DNA of 63,981 bases, filler included, from an uncultured Planctomycetales bacterium (GTDB lineage: Bacteria > Omnitrophota > Gorgyraeia > Gygaellales > Profunditerraquicolaceae), in NCBI GenBank assembly GCA_964487475.1. It is 7 parts of 7 records of this genome, joined end to end, with 100 filler letters (N's around TTAATTAATTAA, not from the genome) between each part and the next. Parts side by side here need not be neighbours in the genome. Positions count along the whole stretch, not along the records: positions 56,182 to 61,008 come from CAZAPM010000027.1; positions 61,109 to 63,981 come from CAZAPM010000031.1; 5 more parts are not named here. One strand, written 5' to 3'. Shown here one piece after another: positions 57,001-63,000 of this stretch. Position 1 is the first letter of the stretch; every line of letters begins with the position of its first letter. Made by a program: the position numbers.

Positions 57001-60000
57001 CTGGCGTACCAGAGCGAGGCGGAACTTTACAAGGATTTCTCCCTTTCGCCCCTTCGCCAGACCCTGGAGGAGATGACGCAGGATCTTTCCCGCATGACCT
57101 TCCTCAAGGCGGTGATGGACGGCAAGATCGTCGGTTCCGTGCGGGCGTACCAGGAGGGGGATTCCTGTTACATCAGCCGGCTGATCGTGCACCCGGTGTA
57201 CCAGAACCAGGGGATCGGGCATAAACTCATGCAGCAGATCGAGGCGGCGTTCCCGCAGGTTTCCCGGTATGAGGGGTTTGCCGGGCACAAGAGCAAGCGC
57301 AACGTGGATTTTTACCAGCGCTTAGGGTACGTCCGCTTCAAACGGGAGAAGATCTCGGAGAAACGCGAGCGCATTTATCTGGAAAAGAAAGTGGAGAGGA
57401 ACCCATGATCGAGGAGCAGAAGCTGGTGATGGCGGATCAAGGGGCGCTGCTGGCAAAAGCCGGCGAGTTCAAGGCGCAGGGGTGGAGGCTGGTCCAGATC
57501 GGGTGCACGCGCCTGGCGGAGAAGCTGGAGCTTAACTACTCCTTCGACAAGAACTATGAGTTCGTGAACGTGCGGGTGGAAGTCCCCCTTTCCGGCGGCT
57601 CGGTTCCCAGCATCAGTCCGGTGTATTGGGCGGCGTTCCTGTATGAGAATGAGATCAAGGACCTCTACGGCCTGGAGGTCACCGGCATGGTCATCGACTA
57701 TAAAGGCAATTTTTACCGCACCAACATCAAGGTGCCTTTCAATCCTCCTGCCGGCGGCGCAGAGAAGAAAGCGGGGGCCTGATATGGGTAACCGTACGAT
57801 CATTCCCTTCGGACCGCAGCATCCCGTGTTGCCCGAGCCGATCCACCTGGACCTGGTGCTGGAAGACGAGAAGGTGGTGGAGGCGATCCCTACGATCGGA
57901 TATATCCACCGGGGACTGGAAAAACTGGTGGAGAAGAAGGATTTCATCGATTTCGTGTACGTGGCGGAGCGTATCTGCGGCATCTGTTCCTTCATCCACG
58001 GCTTGACGTACTGCCTGGCGATCGAGGAGATCATGAAGCTGGAAGTGCCGTCACGCGCGCAGTATTTGCGCGTGATCTGGTCCGAGCTTTCCCGTCTGCA
58101 TTCGCATCTGCTCTGGCTGGGGCTGATGGCGGATGCCTTCGGGTTCGAGAGTTTATTCATGCACTGCTGGCGGCTGCGCGAGCAGGTGCTGGATATCATC
58201 GAACAGACTACCGGAGGCCGGGTTATCTTCGCCTCCTCGAAGGTGGGGGGCGTGCGCCGGGATATCGATGCCGCGACGTTGGCCGATATCGTTGCCAAGC
58301 TCAAGAAATTCGAGGGGGAGATCAAGGAGATCACGGCTGTCTTCCTGGAGGATAGTTCGGTCAAGCACCGCCTGGAAGGCGTGGGCAGGCTTTCGGCGGA
58401 GAAGGCGTATGAGCTGGGAGCGGTAGGCCCGACCCTGCGCGCCAGCGGGATCTCCTCCGATACCCGCAAGCTCGGCTATTGCGCGTACAAGGACCTTTCC
58501 TTTGCGCCCATCACCGATACCCGCGGGGATTCCTATGCCCGCTGCGTGGTGCGGATCAAGGAGCTTTTCCAGTCCATCGACCTGATCACCCAGGCTGCGG
58601 CTAAAATTCCCGAAGGCCCTCTGGAGGTCAAGGTCACGGGCACTCCGCAGGGTGAGTTTTTTGCCCGCACCGAGCAGCCCAGAGGAGAGGTCATCTATTA
58701 CGCCAAGGCGGACGGCAGCCGTTTCCTGCAGCGGATGCGGGTGCGCACCCCTACGTTCGCCAACATGGCGGCGCTGGTGCATGTGCTGCCGGGGGTAAGC
58801 CTGGCGGATGTGCCGGTGTTGATATTGACCATCGATCCCTGCATCAGCTGTACGGAGCGCTAATATGGCATTCTTTGTGATGACGAAGACCGTGCTCAAG
58901 AGCCTTTTCCGCAAGCCCGTGACCGTGAAGTACCCGTTCGGCCCGGCGACGCATAAGGAAAAGACCCGGGGGCACATCGAGATAGATATCAAGGCCTGCA
59001 TCTTCTGCGGGATGTGCCAGCGCAAGTGCCCCACCGGCGCGCTGGCCGTGCGCCGCGAGCAGAAGGAGTGGGAGATCGACCGTATGCGCTGCATCTCCTG
59101 CAACGCCTGCGTCGAGATCTGTCCCAAGAAATGCCTGTGCATGCGCAACACCTATTCCCCTCCGGCGACCCAGAAACAGAAGGAGACCTTCCGCCATGCA
59201 TGAGCATCATATCGTGGAGGGGATCGTCAAGCAGGTGCTGGAGAAAGCCGCCCTCGCCCAGGCGAAAAGGGTGACGGAGGTATTCCTGGTCATGGGCACG
59301 GAAAGCGGCCTGGCCGAGGAATCGGTGCGGATGTACTTCGCGGAGATATCCAAAGGCACGATGGCCGAGCAGGCCCTGGTGCACATCGCCTCCAAGCCGG
59401 TGACGCTGCGCTGTAACTCCTGCGACGTGGTCTTCGACTACAAGCGCGGGGATTTCAACTGCCCAACCTGCGGCAACCTTGGCGTGCGCGCCACCACCGC
59501 CAAAGAGTTCTACATCGACCGCATCGAAGTCGAGTCTTAAGAGGCCCCTTTCCTATGTGTTACGCCATCCCCGCTCTGGTCGAAGAGGTCCGCGGCAACG
59601 TCGCCGTCATTTCCTATTTCGGGGAGCGGAAAACCGCCTTTAACGAACTTATCGCGCTCGCACCGGGTGACTATGTGTATGCCCAGGGAGGCTACGTCAT
59701 CTCTAAGGTGCGCTCCGATGAGGCCCTGGCGTCCCTCGATACCTGGAAGGACTTGTTTTTCGAACTGCAGGATGTGGATGCGCGCCGGGCAGCCGCGGGC
59801 GCGGGAAGCCCGGGGAATGATCGCCGCTTAAGTTCCATCCTGGAGAAAGCCGGACAGGGCGAGATCCCTCAAAAGTATGACGCGCAGTATCTCTTATCCC
59901 TGACCGATCCCAAGGCCAGAGAGTCATTCTACGGCACGGCGAATCTGCTCCGGCAGCGCTACCATAAGAATTCCTGCTGCGTGCACGGGATCATCGAACT

Positions 60001-63000
60001 TTCCAACCATTGCGTACGCTCCTGCGTGTACTGCGGGATATCCCGGGAAACCCCGGTTACCCGTTATCGCATGAGCAGGGAAGAGGTCTTGGCGGCAGCG
60101 GCCGAGGCGGTGGAAGTGTACGGGTTCAAATCCCTGGTCCTGCAAAGCGGGGAGGGCGCGTATCCGGTCGAAGAGCTCGCGTTCCTGGTCGAGGAGATCA
60201 GGCGCCGGTATCCGTGCCTTATCTTCGTCAGTTTCGGGGAGGTGGGGCTGGAGGGGCTGGAGGCGTTGTACCGCGCCGGAGCGCGGGGGCTCCTGATGCG
60301 CTTCGAGACCTCGAACCCGAAGTTGTATGCGGCGATCCACGGAGGAAGCGCCCTGGATACCAGGCTGGCGCATCTGCGCCGGGCGCATGAATTGGGGTAC
60401 CTTATCCTTACCGGAAGCCTGATCGGCGTGCCGGGCCAGACGCGCGAGGATCTTTATAACGATATCGTGCTGGCAGGAGAGCTCCACGCGGAGATGTTCA
60501 GTTTCGGGCCTTTCCTGCCGCATCCGAATACGCCTTTGGCCGGCCATGGGGCGTGCAGGGAAGAGGAGGTGCTGGGCGTGCTGGCGTTATCCAGGCTGAT
60601 GGCGCCGCGCAACGCCAAGATCCTGGTCACTACCGCATTCGAGACCCTCTCTGCGCGCGCCAGGGAAGAGGGGCTTCTGGCAGGGGCGAATTCATTGATG
60701 CTGAATGTGACCCCGCTCAAATACCGGCCGTTGTACTCGCTGTATCCTCACCGGGCGCATGAACAGGAGAGCGTCCGGGAGCAGATAGACGGGACGATCG
60801 CGATGCTCAAGGGCCTCGGCCGCGGGCCGACGGACCTGGGGGTGTGAAAGAGGTTGCAATAAGGGGGAGGAGCAGGTATAATTAAACCCCGTAGCTCCTT
60901 GCCTAAGCAATAGATCGAAATTTGGAGAGGTGGCAGAGTGGTCGATCGCGCACGCTTGGAAAGCGTGTGTCCTGCAAGGGACCCAGGGTTCGAATCCCTG
61001 CCTCTCCGNNNNNNNNNNNNNNNNNNNNNNNNNNNNNNNNNNNNNNNNNNNNTTAATTAATTAANNNNNNNNNNNNNNNNNNNNNNNNNNNNNNNNNNNN
61101 NNNNNNNNTACCTGGGGATCACCGTAGATTCCGGGCTGACGGAGGTGCTTTCCAAGGATTCGCCCCTTGAGGAGGCTTTGGTTAACGTCGGTATCCCTAA
61201 CCTGACCGTGCTGCCGAGCGGCGCGATACCTAAGAACCCGGCGGAGCTGGTGGGATCGAATAAGATGCGCTCGCTCATCCAGACGCTTAAGGGCAAATTC
61301 GACTATATCATTTTCGATACGCCGCCGATCATCCCCGTGACCGATGCGGGGCTCCTCGGCGCATTGACGGACGGAGTGATCATGGTGGTGCAGGCGAACC
61401 GCACCCAGAAGGGTGTGGTCAAGCACGGTGAATCCATGCTGCGCCAGGCCCACGCCAAGATCCTCGGCTATATTTTAACGAACATTCAGTACCATATTCC
61501 CGCGTACATTTACCGATATTTATAAGGAGGAGGCATGAGATTTCTCGTCACCGGCGGCGCCGGCTTTATCGGCTCCCACATTACCGAACGTCTTCTTAAA
61601 GAAGGTCATTTCGTCCGCGTGCTGGACAACTTCTCCAGCGGCAAAGAGTCGAATTTAAAGGGACTGTCCCCCGAAGTTATTCGCGGGGACATCCGCGACA
61701 AGGCCACCTGCGACAAGGCTTGCGAAGGCATCGACTACATCTCGCACCAGGCCGCGCTTCGCTCCGTGCCTAAGTCCCTGAAGGAGCCCGAGTCCTACAA
61801 CGACGTCAACATCGGCGGCACCCTTAATCTGCTTCAGGCTGCCCAGAAGCACAAGATCAAGCGTTTCGTGATGGCCTCTTCCAGCTCCGTCTACGGGGAT
61901 ACCGACAAGTTCCCGGAGCGGGAGGATGCGTATCCGGTGCTCATTTCCCCGTATGCGCTTTCCAAGCTGGCCAATGAGTATTACTGCCGTATCTTCTCCG
62001 AACACTTCGGCCTCGAGACGGTCTGCTTCCGCTATTTCAACGTCTTCGGGCCCCGCCAGGCGCTTGACGACGAGTATGCGGTAGTCATCCCCAAGTTCAT
62101 CCACTGTATCCTCAATGATAAGAAACCGCCCATTTTTGGCACCGGCAAGCAGTCTCGCGATTTTACCTTTATCGATAACGTGGTGGACGCCAACATCAAG
62201 GGTATGCTTACCCCCGGGATCAAGCATGAAGTCTTCAATGTCGGCAACGGCAGGGACAATACGGTCCTGCAGCTGGTAGAGATCATTAATAAGATCCTCG
62301 GCAAGAAGATCGAGCCGGAGTTGCTGCCGGTGCGCGCCGGGGATGTGTTCCGCACCTGGGCGGATGTTTCCAAGATCAAGGCGAAGTTAGGATGGGAGCC
62401 GGCGGTCAATTTCGAGGAAGGCCTGCGCCGCACGGCGGAATATTTTAAGCAGAAGGGGTTCTAAATGAGCAGAACGATGAGCATGCTTTATACCGCCGCG
62501 CGCGAGCGGTGCGATGTTCCTGCGGTTGCATCGGCAGCCGAGCACCAGGGGGAATGCTGCAAAGTGGATTGGACCCCGGTGCAGCTGGCTATGGCTCATG
62601 TGGTAGCGGCAATTTTATTCATCCTCAACATCGTCATATTCATAAGCTTAACGTAGGAGATATCATGTCGATCTATCAGGGGTTGCTGACTAAAAAGGAG
62701 AAGGTGGCGGTTGTCGGGTTAGGGTACGTCGGATTGCCTTTGGCGGTCGAGTTCGGCAAGCTGGTGCCGACCATCGGTTTCGACCTTAATAAGAAGCGTA
62801 TCGCCGATCTGCAGGGAAAGCTCGATACCAACGGCGAGACTTCATCCGAGGAGCTCAAGGAGTCCAAGCTCCTGGAAGTCACTTCTGATCCGGCGCGGCT
62901 TAAGGAAGCCCGGTTCATCGTAGTGGCGGTGCCGACCCCGATCAACAAGAACAAGCAGCCTGACCTCTATTGCGTGGAAAGCGCCTCGGAGCTGGTGGGC

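Follow-up and report, generated by a model that had tools for sequence, protein, structure and literature searches.

Here we report that a HypC domain fused to a HydE-like radical SAM enzyme, together with HydG, very probably replaces HypD, HypE and HypF in some way in the maturation of [NiFe] hydrogenases. The fusion gene lies in the window (the whole 63,981-nucleotide stretch of DNA analysed, from assembly GCA_964487475.1). The preliminary description of this DNA had proposed the same replacement, which is now supported by the exclusion of HypD, the tie to HydG and the closed genome of an isolate. The features of the operon are as follows.

56182..56479, + strand: 3′ end of an EchB/NuoH-like membrane subunit, truncated by the contig start
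56497..57408, + strand: EchC/NuoB-like small subunit carrying a GNAT acetyltransferase domain at its C terminus, from a domain search
57405..57782, + strand: EchD/NuoC-like subunit, from profile searches
57784..58863, + strand: group 4 (Ech-type) [NiFe] large subunit, 359 residues, with RICGIC, DPCISC, PRG and PT motifs and no C-terminal extension
58865..59203, + strand: EchF/NuoI-like 2x[4Fe-4S] subunit, from profile searches
59196..59540, + strand: hypA nickel chaperone, 114 residues, with an MHE start and both CxxC motifs
59555..60847, + strand: HypC–HydE-like radical SAM fusion gene, 430 residues, from profile matches, the HydE alignment and a structure model
59555..59782, + strand: HypC domain (residues 1–76), with Cys2, and Gln44 at the site of the stand-alone HypC histidine
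59837..60829, + strand: HydE-derived radical SAM barrel (residues 95–425), with CxxxCxxC at 153/157/160
59978..59986, + strand: signature Cys142-Val-His144 of the family, in barrel strand 1, at the TmHydE H52 and R54 positions
60923..61009, + strand: tRNA-Ser(GGA), directly past the operon at the contig end

The contig that carries the fusion is only 4827 bp long, and the operon starts on contig C14, the end of which holds an EchA-like gene and the first 203 residues of the EchB/NuoH-like subunit. As had been claimed, the fusion gene closes the Ech-type operon directly 3′ of hypA, and the large subunit carries both CxxC motifs, RICGIC as L1 and DPCISC as L2. A complex of the HypC domain with the large subunit was predicted with a score in the weak range (0.54, against 0.00 for the best of three controls), a contact agreement of at least 63% and a partner pLDDT of at least 73. 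Of 157 solved pairs, 116 attained the mark applied to such scores, as did 2 of 215 mismatched pairs, yet only 18 of the 157 solved pairs, and both mismatches, lay between the mark and 0.60. The predicted contact may be explained by likeness to the known role of HypC. In one RNA run (5% of words), contigs of relatives span some of the operon but only a small portion of the fusion, which speaks neither for nor against expression.

The fusion ORF begins with Met-Cys and contains no internal stop, and the two domains announced by the preliminary description, a HypC with Cys2 and a HydE-like radical SAM enzyme, reside in this single 430-residue frame. Residues 1–64 match PF01455 (HypC) with 47 bits, above the gathering cut-off of 28.5, and residues 1–76 match TIGR00074 with 39.9 bits, below the cut-off of 48. 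Residues 106–406 score 215.7 bits with the HydE profile TIGR03956, below the equivalog cut-off of 254.6; a member of a distant subfamily of the fusion passes it with 288.7 bits. PylB, BioB, HmdB and ThiH, of the same barrel superfamily, score 110.8, 79.7, 53.3 and 51.2 bits, respectively, and database labels reading ‘biotin synthase’ are automatic. The best solved relative of the barrel is Thermotoga maritima HydE (E = 1.6e-55; 36% identity). Our structure model has a pLDDT of 92.7 and a pTM of 0.93, and the top ten matches in a fold search were all HydE, with the full barrel fold and TM-scores of 0.89–0.95 over the target, in line with the high-confidence model and HydE folds reported before. 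All 120 homologues listed contain both Pfam domains and the same fusion was found at 80 genome loci, which excludes an assembly artefact. The HypC part, which had earlier been deduced from ORF length in some genomes, was a true fusion in all 41 long HypC frames of a phylum-wide sample.

The source genome is 94.64% complete. A search of this genome yielded no HypD, and no HypF, HypE or HypB over the cut-off, so that the previously noted lack of these genes stands. The ordinary maturase cluster noted before was also recovered: a single HydG–HydE–HydF cluster on contig C6, the HydG of which exceeds the TIGR03955 cut-off, with 495 bits.

We analysed the distribution of the fusion in two newly drawn samples, a phylum sample of 301 genomes, each at least 90% complete, and a cross-phylum sample of 80 fusion genomes; 11 genomes are common to both, most of all genomes are metagenome-assembled and kin are not independent. 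A [NiFe] large subunit occurs in 154 of the 301 genomes; of these, 109 have HypD and 41 the fusion, no genome combines the two and 4 have neither. HypD accompanies a stand-alone HypC in 108 of 108 genomes, versus 0 of 41 genomes with the fusion, and seven families contain both types, one type per genome. In the cross-phylum sample, HypD is present in 2 of 80 genomes (G006 and G024, which also have hypC and a cut hypF), and HypF over the cut-off in none of the 80, nor in five genomes of a separate test; HypE over the cut-off was likewise absent from the five fusion genomes searched. The HypF-like matches in G034 and G047 were not counted, as they cover the C-terminal half only, at 22–26% identity, and fall under the cut-off. 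The mutual exclusion of the fusion with HypD and HypF, first seen in smaller samples, thus persists in larger ones (HypD, 0/41 and 2/80; HypF, 0/80). All 41 fusion genomes of the phylum sample and 79 of the 80 in the cross-phylum sample have the large subunit, and the fusion is the sole HypC of the genomes that carry it. The closed circular genome of the isolate SIUC1, which has a group 3b hydrogenase, fits the pattern; G008 was dropped as a closed test case, with its operon cut at a junction and no large subunit found. Because the standard assembly proteins are missing from nearly every fusion genome, the fusion likely marks a second [NiFe] assembly route. Among the four genomes with neither type, G295 carries a large subunit together with HydG, and no fusion lies beside HydG on its 1966-bp contig.

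The fusion gene lies within a [NiFe] operon at 57 of the 80 loci, and the large subunits that adjoin it are group 1-like, 3b, 3c/d-like or one of several in group 4; the group 4 context claimed earlier thus holds in the window and not as a general tie. These large subunits retain the four cysteines and the PRG and PT/PS/AT motifs, have hypA and a maturation protease beside them, and belong to groups that co-occur with HypD in sister genomes. Missing HypB, by contrast with the earlier claim, is no mark of the route: HypB occurs in 0 of 10 fusion genomes, versus only 1 of 5 HypD genomes, and is present at 8 of the 80 fusion loci. A shortage of carbamoyl phosphate as the cause of the switch was rejected, as 4 of 5 fusion genomes possess carB.

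HydG is present in all 41 fusion genomes of the phylum sample and, among HydF-less genomes, in 20 of 20 with the fusion versus 6 of 165 others. Neither HydF nor an [FeFe] catalytic domain occurs in 34 of the 80 cross-phylum genomes, 33 of which have HydG; 6 of the 80 have no convincing HydG. The two genes lie within 10 kb at 33 of 80 loci, and five proteins of 881–943 residues, from both subfamilies, join HydG and the fusion in frame, confirming the reported association. The distant subfamily has HydG at 55 of its 80 loci, with HypD/E/F, HydF and [FeFe] in 0 of 80 (references checked on control loci). HydF, reported before in only 5 of 19 fusion genomes, is more frequent in the larger samples (21/41 and 40/80). 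The HydG proteins are ordinary: all 63 carry CxxxCxxC and G[PA]HT, 45 match the C-terminal CxxCx22C, and the other 18 fall within a single clade, to which two HydGs from [FeFe] clusters belong as well. The fusion-side HydGs interleave with [FeFe]-cluster HydGs on the tree, mostly as one copy per genome, so the HydG product should be complex B. A specialised HydG that makes Fe(CN)2CO found no support, as fusion-side and HydE-side HydGs mix on a quick tree (6 changes versus a shuffled mean of 7.6).

Residue counts were compared between 214 fusions and 118 HydE-type outgroup proteins. The fusion barrels form a single clade within HydE diversity and derive from HydE. Cys2, previously invariant in 13 sequences, is found in 213 of 214. 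Gln44 likewise occurs in 213 of 214 and replaces the histidine of the HypC H[AV]G motif, which was present in 9 of 9 stand-alone HypCs read and has a role in Fe binding; the distant subfamily has other residues at this site. The radical SAM CxxxCxxC is universal (214/214). In the alignment, E148, Q197, R249, M314, T360, M382 and Y397 correspond to TmHydE E58, Q107, R159, M224, T269, M291 and Y306, so the upper-pocket and transfer residues of HydE are retained, and the cysteine-handling set (E58, M291, M224, T269, Y306 and a basic residue at K309) is kept in nearly all 214 fusions. By contrast, the exit-site triad R54/T134/R155, which in HydE touches the dimer's cyanides (PMC11826987), is replaced in all 214 fusions, by His, by Phe/Cys/Ile/Leu and by Gly/Ala, respectively, whereas the outgroup has R in 110, T in 107 and R in 104 of 118 proteins. 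Cys142 and His144 are gained in 214 of 214, the position of His144 being Arg in 110 of 118 outgroup proteins. The C-terminal stretch of the barrel is shorter, with a median of 8 residues past Arg423 versus at least 12 in eight HydEs.

These features are consistent with a five-step sequence, which we lean towards as a whole, though by no great measure. HydG would split tyrosine into complex B, Fe(II)(cysteine)(CO)2CN, and a spare cyanide, as is established for HydG. Complex B would then enter the conserved upper pocket of the barrel, where a HydE-type radical attack on sulfur would remove the cysteine. In place of dimerising at the exit site, the single iron would be trapped at the bottom of the barrel by Cys142/His144 and HypC Cys2, which the HydE alignment suggests to be close to one another; HypD Cys41 with HypC Cys2 would be the counterpart of this iron-holding site. 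At the Fe(I) stage, at which ligands are labile, one CO would be swapped for the spare cyanide, giving Fe(CN)2CO. This exchange is the weakest step of the sequence: we know of no enzyme that swaps CO and CN to turn Fe(CO)2CN into Fe(CN)2CO. The literature describes the former as the HydG product and the latter as the requirement of the [NiFe] site. Finally, Fe(CN)2CO would pass from Cys2 to the apo large subunit, and HypA would add nickel.

Four other explanations were weighed. An unlikely one is that HydG gives free CO and cyanide and that the fusion is a HypD-like scaffold building Fe(CN)2CO on its own iron, held between Cys2 and the invariant Cys142/His144, with the cluster serving for electrons or a different radical step. 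It makes the ligand swap unnecessary, HydG has been reported to release CO and CN in free form, and all of the genomic evidence is compatible with it to the same degree; however, a plain scaffold needs no cysteine-handling pocket of the kind that nearly all fusions retain. Less probable still is that complex B loses its cysteine and is handed over unswapped, forming a non-canonical Ni–Fe(CO)2(CN) site. The chemistry would be the simplest, HydG is unspecialised and no further conserved enzyme was found among the 70 largest neighbour clusters (32 annotated), yet the large-subunit motifs that hydrogen-bond both cyanides are intact, and sister genomes combine these hydrogenase groups with HypD, from which the pocket looks unchanged. 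Should this improbable reading apply, around one-quarter of the [NiFe] genomes of the phylum, and lineages in many anaerobic phyla, would make the site out of tyrosine by means of two radical SAM enzymes, with the Fe(CO)2CN of HydG inserted unchanged; the resulting Ni–Fe(CO)2(CN) cofactor is not known from nature. We consider it very improbable that the fusion is an [FeFe] maturase with a HypC carrier in place of HydF, or has a side job while other proteins make the [NiFe] iron unit: the barrel is of HydE origin and an [FeFe] domain occurs in 45 of the 80 fusion genomes, but 34 lack both [FeFe] and HydF, a separate canonical HydE is kept in 3 of 3 [FeFe]-bearing genomes checked, 57 of 80 loci lie in [NiFe] operons and the fusion is the sole HypC. 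The faintest prospect, already largely refuted, is that incomplete or related metagenome-assembled genomes, or cofactor-less relic hydrogenases, create the pattern, against which stand the HypD split described above, the closed isolate genome, the intact four cysteines and the adjacent hypA and protease.

The favoured HydG–fusion route shares features with several known systems. With the HypC–HypD–HypE–HypF route (Escherichia coli and Thermococcus kodakarensis; HypC structures 2z1c and 3vyr), it has in common the HypC fold, Cys2 and the target, namely a [NiFe] large subunit with four cysteines, next to which lie HypA and a protease, but it lacks HypD, HypE and HypF, joins HypC to a radical SAM barrel, replaces the HypC histidine and would derive its ligands from tyrosine rather than carbamoyl phosphate. 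Like HydE (3iiz, 7o1o and 7o1t), with which it also shares E161, the fusion travels with HydG; unlike HydE, it has G226 and P266 replaced as well as the exit-site triad, lacks the auxiliary-cluster cysteines and needs no HydF or [FeFe] enzyme. The aerobic HypX is likewise a second source for a [NiFe]-site ligand but supplements HypCDEF with CO from formyl-THF, whereas the fusion route would replace the scaffold and both ligand sources. A protein named in a single sentence as an ‘unusual’ fusion of HydE and HypC, in a [NiFe] operon of Ca. Centrionella anaeramoebae, with protease, HypA and HypB (bioRxiv 10.64898/2026.04.11.717937), is by its description probably of the same family; the main text of that preprint assigns it no function, describes the machinery as ‘full’ and is silent on HydG and on missing HypD/E/F. 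A CPR family with HypC homology, ‘fam002’ (PMC7304191), may also be this fusion.

A full-text literature search, with most subscription papers outside its reach, returned no paper proposing a route through HydG and a HypC–HydE fusion. The component families are known, and the route belongs to neither known maturation pathway. One review states that the [NiFe] cofactor requires six Hyp proteins (PMC12134894) and another that no radical SAM enzyme takes part in making the centre (PMC8855341); both rules are broken by genomes in the present samples, 41 of the 154 with [NiFe] in one phylum and others across many further phyla. If true, the route would link two maturation systems held to be separate, give HydE chemistry a trappable mononuclear product and offer a two-gene maturation kit for engineering, or a one-gene kit in some genomes. 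The presence of the fusion in a cultured strain with a closed genome makes the route directly testable. For these organisms, as distinct from HypCD users, it would also name the anaerobic source of CO.

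As the preliminary description had it, the HypC–HydE-like radical SAM fusion ends an Ech-type (group 4) [NiFe]-hydrogenase operon after hypA, and both CxxC motifs of the large subunit are in place. The contig that bears the fusion, of 4827 bp, occupies 56182–61008 of the window, which overall is several contigs strung together, and carries the following features, the ORFs being the tail of that operon.

First ORF of the contig: NuoH-like subunit of the Ech-type operon, 3′ end only
56497–57408: small subunit of the Ech-type operon, 303 residues, with a C-terminal GNAT acetyltransferase domain
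Between the small and large subunits: NuoC-like subunit of the operon
57784–58863: [NiFe] large subunit, with RICGIC and DPCISC
Between the large subunit and hypA: ferredoxin-like subunit of the operon
59196–59540: hypA, directly before the fusion ORF
59555–60847: fusion ORF, 430 residues, closing the operon
3′ of the fusion ORF, same contig: tRNA-Ser

The 5′ start of the operon was found at the end of another contig of the genome, C14. Small subunits of about 300 residues stand at the equivalent position in seven related loci (L020, L024, L030, L031, L041, L051 and L055). The genome, which is 94.64% complete, has no HypD and gave no match above the cut-off for HypE, HypF or HypB, and its only HydG lies on contig C6 alongside HydE, HydF and [FeFe] genes; both the missing Hyp proteins and the separate HydE/F/G cluster had been described before, and both stand.

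The fusion protein comprises a HypC part (residues 1–64/76) and a HydE-like barrel (residues 95–425). An AlphaFold2 model from 115 sequences reached a pLDDT of 92.7 and a pTM of 0.93, and the best ten matches of a fold search with this model were all T. maritima HydE, entries bound to complex B (Fe(II)(cysteine)(CO)2CN) among them, so that, with the domain matches, the claimed HypC plus HydE architecture and HydE-type fold are confirmed. Both domains were present in 120 of 120 homologues among the matches listed. A shorter form of about 392–400 residues, without some 35–40 linker residues between HypC and the barrel, occurs at ten loci (L072, L127, L130, L132, L134, L136, L138, L139, L145 and L146).

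Residue numbers were taken from T. maritima HydE by way of an alignment. The radical SAM cysteines, Q107, R159 and E161 are invariant in 214 fusions, E58, M224, T269, M291 and Y306 are nearly invariant, and the K309 position is Arg or Lys; cysteine breakdown and the iron relay in HydE are assigned to these residues in parts of PMC11826987 and PMC10114646. According to a section of PMC11826987, the R54/T134/R155 triad of HydE touches the cyanides of the dimer product. Among 118 outgroup proteins, R54 is kept in 110, T134 in 107 and R155 in 104, whereas the fusions have His, a hydrophobic residue and Gly or Ala, respectively, at these positions. Cys142 and His144 (fusion numbering) are present in all 214. 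The stretch described as the cover of the HydE exit looks shortened, because the fusion chain ends sooner after Arg423 (median of 8 residues, versus at least 12 in 8 HydEs). The HypC part retains Cys2, and Gln replaces the His found in nine of nine stand-alone HypCs. This combination of a conserved entry side, a rebuilt exit and an attached carrier would be expected if a dimer made for HydF had given way to a single iron passed to HypC. When the HypC domain and the large subunit were predicted as a complex, the score was 0.54, against 0.00 for the best of three controls, which weakly supports this pairing.

We surveyed 301 tool-drawn genomes of the phylum Omnitrophota, each with a completeness of 90% or more. 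Of these, 151 have HypC: a short stand-alone frame in 108, a long frame in 41 and a cut one in two. In none of the 301 did both kinds occur together. Every long frame proved to be a fusion: 29 were read from fetched regions, one is that of the present genome, and 11 match loci of the first, 80-genome set (11 genomes are common to the two samples). HypD, present in 111 genomes, accompanies 108 of 108 stand-alone HypCs and none of the 41 fusions, and the 154 genomes with a large subunit divide into 109 with HypD, 41 with the fusion and four with neither. Seven families (f1, f8, f9, f27, f29, f35 and f53) contain both HypC kinds, one kind per genome. HydG occurs in 41 of 41 fusion genomes; among 185 HydF-less genomes, all 20 that carry the fusion have HydG, versus 6 of the 165 that do not. 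Because kin are not independent, our conclusions draw on the pattern rather than on p-values. HypB is absent from four of five HypD-route genomes (G136, G256, G166 and G206) and from all ten fusion genomes tested, and members of the phylum may commonly insert nickel without this protein.

A scan of species genomes yielded 80 fusion loci, the majority from Omnitrophota by record title and the others from Atribacterota, Fibrobacterota, Spirochaetota, Margulisbacteria, Elusimicrobiota, Riflebacteria, Nitrospirota, Chlamydiae, Gammaproteobacteria, one archaeon and others. Within 10 kb of the fusion lie a [NiFe] large subunit at 57 of the 80 loci, a HypA-like protein at 53, a maturation protease at 47, HydG at 33 (two of them in-frame fusions) and HypB at 8; HypD, HypE and HypF lie at none. 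The neighbouring large subunits, labelled by motif and model matches, represent groups 3b, 4 (Ech and Mbh-like), 3c/d-like and 1-like, and the module would therefore be a general maturase. In many fusion operons HypA has 80 residues, with the MHE start retained and the zinc-binding CxxC domain missing (L008:9755-9997, L011:9556-9798, L023:9746-9988, L035:6077-6319 and many others); the HypA of the window is full length. A His-containing membrane protein of about 237 residues with no NCBIfam match is conserved near the fusion in 8 of 80 loci (including L004, L021, L035, L039, L045 and L058), and we guess it to be a nickel transporter.

In these 80 genomes, for which completeness values are not given, HypD occurs in two and HypF above the cut-off in none, with contig-cut pieces adjoining hypD in the two HypD-bearing genomes; HypE, searched in five whole genomes, was above the cut-off in none of them. 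HydG is above the cut-off in 71, a cut fragment in three and without a convincing match in six, for which an assembly gap is likely because five of them have [FeFe] genes. The large subunit is found in 79, HydF in 40 and an [FeFe] domain in 45; 34 of the 40 HydF-less genomes also lack [FeFe], and 33 of these 34 have HydG. The mutual exclusion of fusion and HypD proposed in the preliminary description thus holds in the phylum and very nearly across the 80, and its claims that HypF is absent and that the fusion travels with, or is fused to, HydG are likewise upheld. Two spirochaete-type genomes, G047 and G034, encode proteins of 530–550 residues (L114:955-2610 and L115:1027-2625) that match the C-terminal half of HypF only, at 22–26% identity; we label them putative decayed or repurposed HypF.

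One locus, L036, lies in the complete circular genome (G036) of the isolate Caldatribacterium inferamans SIUC1 (DSM 110249), an identity that rests on an accession match in a portion of PMC13408713. Here the fusion stands after a group 3b operon, a protease and hypA, and the closed genome has no HypD, HypE, HypF or HypB; it has one HydG, plus separate HydE, HydF and [FeFe] enzymes. The same gene pattern is found in G023, whose chromosome is a single contig. In both Atribacterota genomes (L168 and L169), hydG lies away from the [NiFe] operon and from hydE/hydF, flanked on one side by a sodium:solute symporter-like gene and on the other by a small uncharacterized ORF (labels read from sequence).

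The fusion is real and widespread, and its replacement of HypD/E/F, fed by HydG, is highly probable. Counting against this are the two fusion genomes that hold both systems, the six without a convincing HydG, the one without a large subunit, and the large-subunit genomes of the phylum with neither route. In the canonical route, iron is held by HypC Cys2 and HypD Cys41 and delivered by HypC alone (parts of PMC11565642 and PMC12134894), and the HydG product is described in part of PMC8855341 as Fe(cysteine)(CO)2CN with a second cyanide, which triggers release and is then displaced. The HydGs adjoining fusions are ordinary HydGs, and therefore either a ligand is swapped, or the unit is built from free ligands, or Fe(CO)2CN is accepted. 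Our best guess is a swap, in which HydG would supply Fe(cysteine)(CO)2CN and the fusion would exchange one CO for the spare cyanide. Fe(I) carbonyl radicals swap ligands readily. Alternatively, the fusion might assemble the iron unit from free CO and cyanide. That the hydrogenase accepts Fe(CO)2CN as is fits poorly with large subunits that retain the motifs around the ligands. We rate the full proposed mechanism at somewhat better than even.

Of the 150 best matches in a profile search across 1.84 billion representatives, 22 bear HypC, and every one of these has Cys142 and His144; a subfamily with roughly 45% identity is among them, as are triple fusions that include HydG (881 and 906 residues). 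In a quick tree, 21 of 21 Cys/His proteins, together with one sequence labelled HydE, form a single clade (SH-aLRT 100) nested among 30 HydE-type sequences. P0141 (365 residues) and P0169 (377 residues) are barrels of the Cys142/His144 type without a HypC domain, and may be split versions of the fusion or truncated gene calls. At 80 metagenome loci of the distant subfamily, HydG occurs in 55 and HypD/E/F, HydF and [FeFe] in none, by references that had been checked against control loci; the 38 loci of at least 9 kb include 28 with HydG and 23 with a large subunit. Several of the contigs look like CPR by gene content. On low-GC, CPR-looking contigs (L201, L203, L207, L234 and L267), the distant fusion lies in group 3b hydrogenase clusters amid glycolysis genes, often with HydG.

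Searches of the full-text literature, subscription papers and supplements aside, found no account of this route, nor do the available portions of PMC9431212, PMC12727194 and PMC11227167 describe it; part of a CPR survey records a neighbouring family that shows some homology to HypC (PMC7304191). The proposed route belongs to neither known pathway, yet would work like parts of each. If our reading is right, the single HydG of SIUC1 and of G023 must supply both pathways, and the distant fusion may explain the maturation of CPR hydrogenases.
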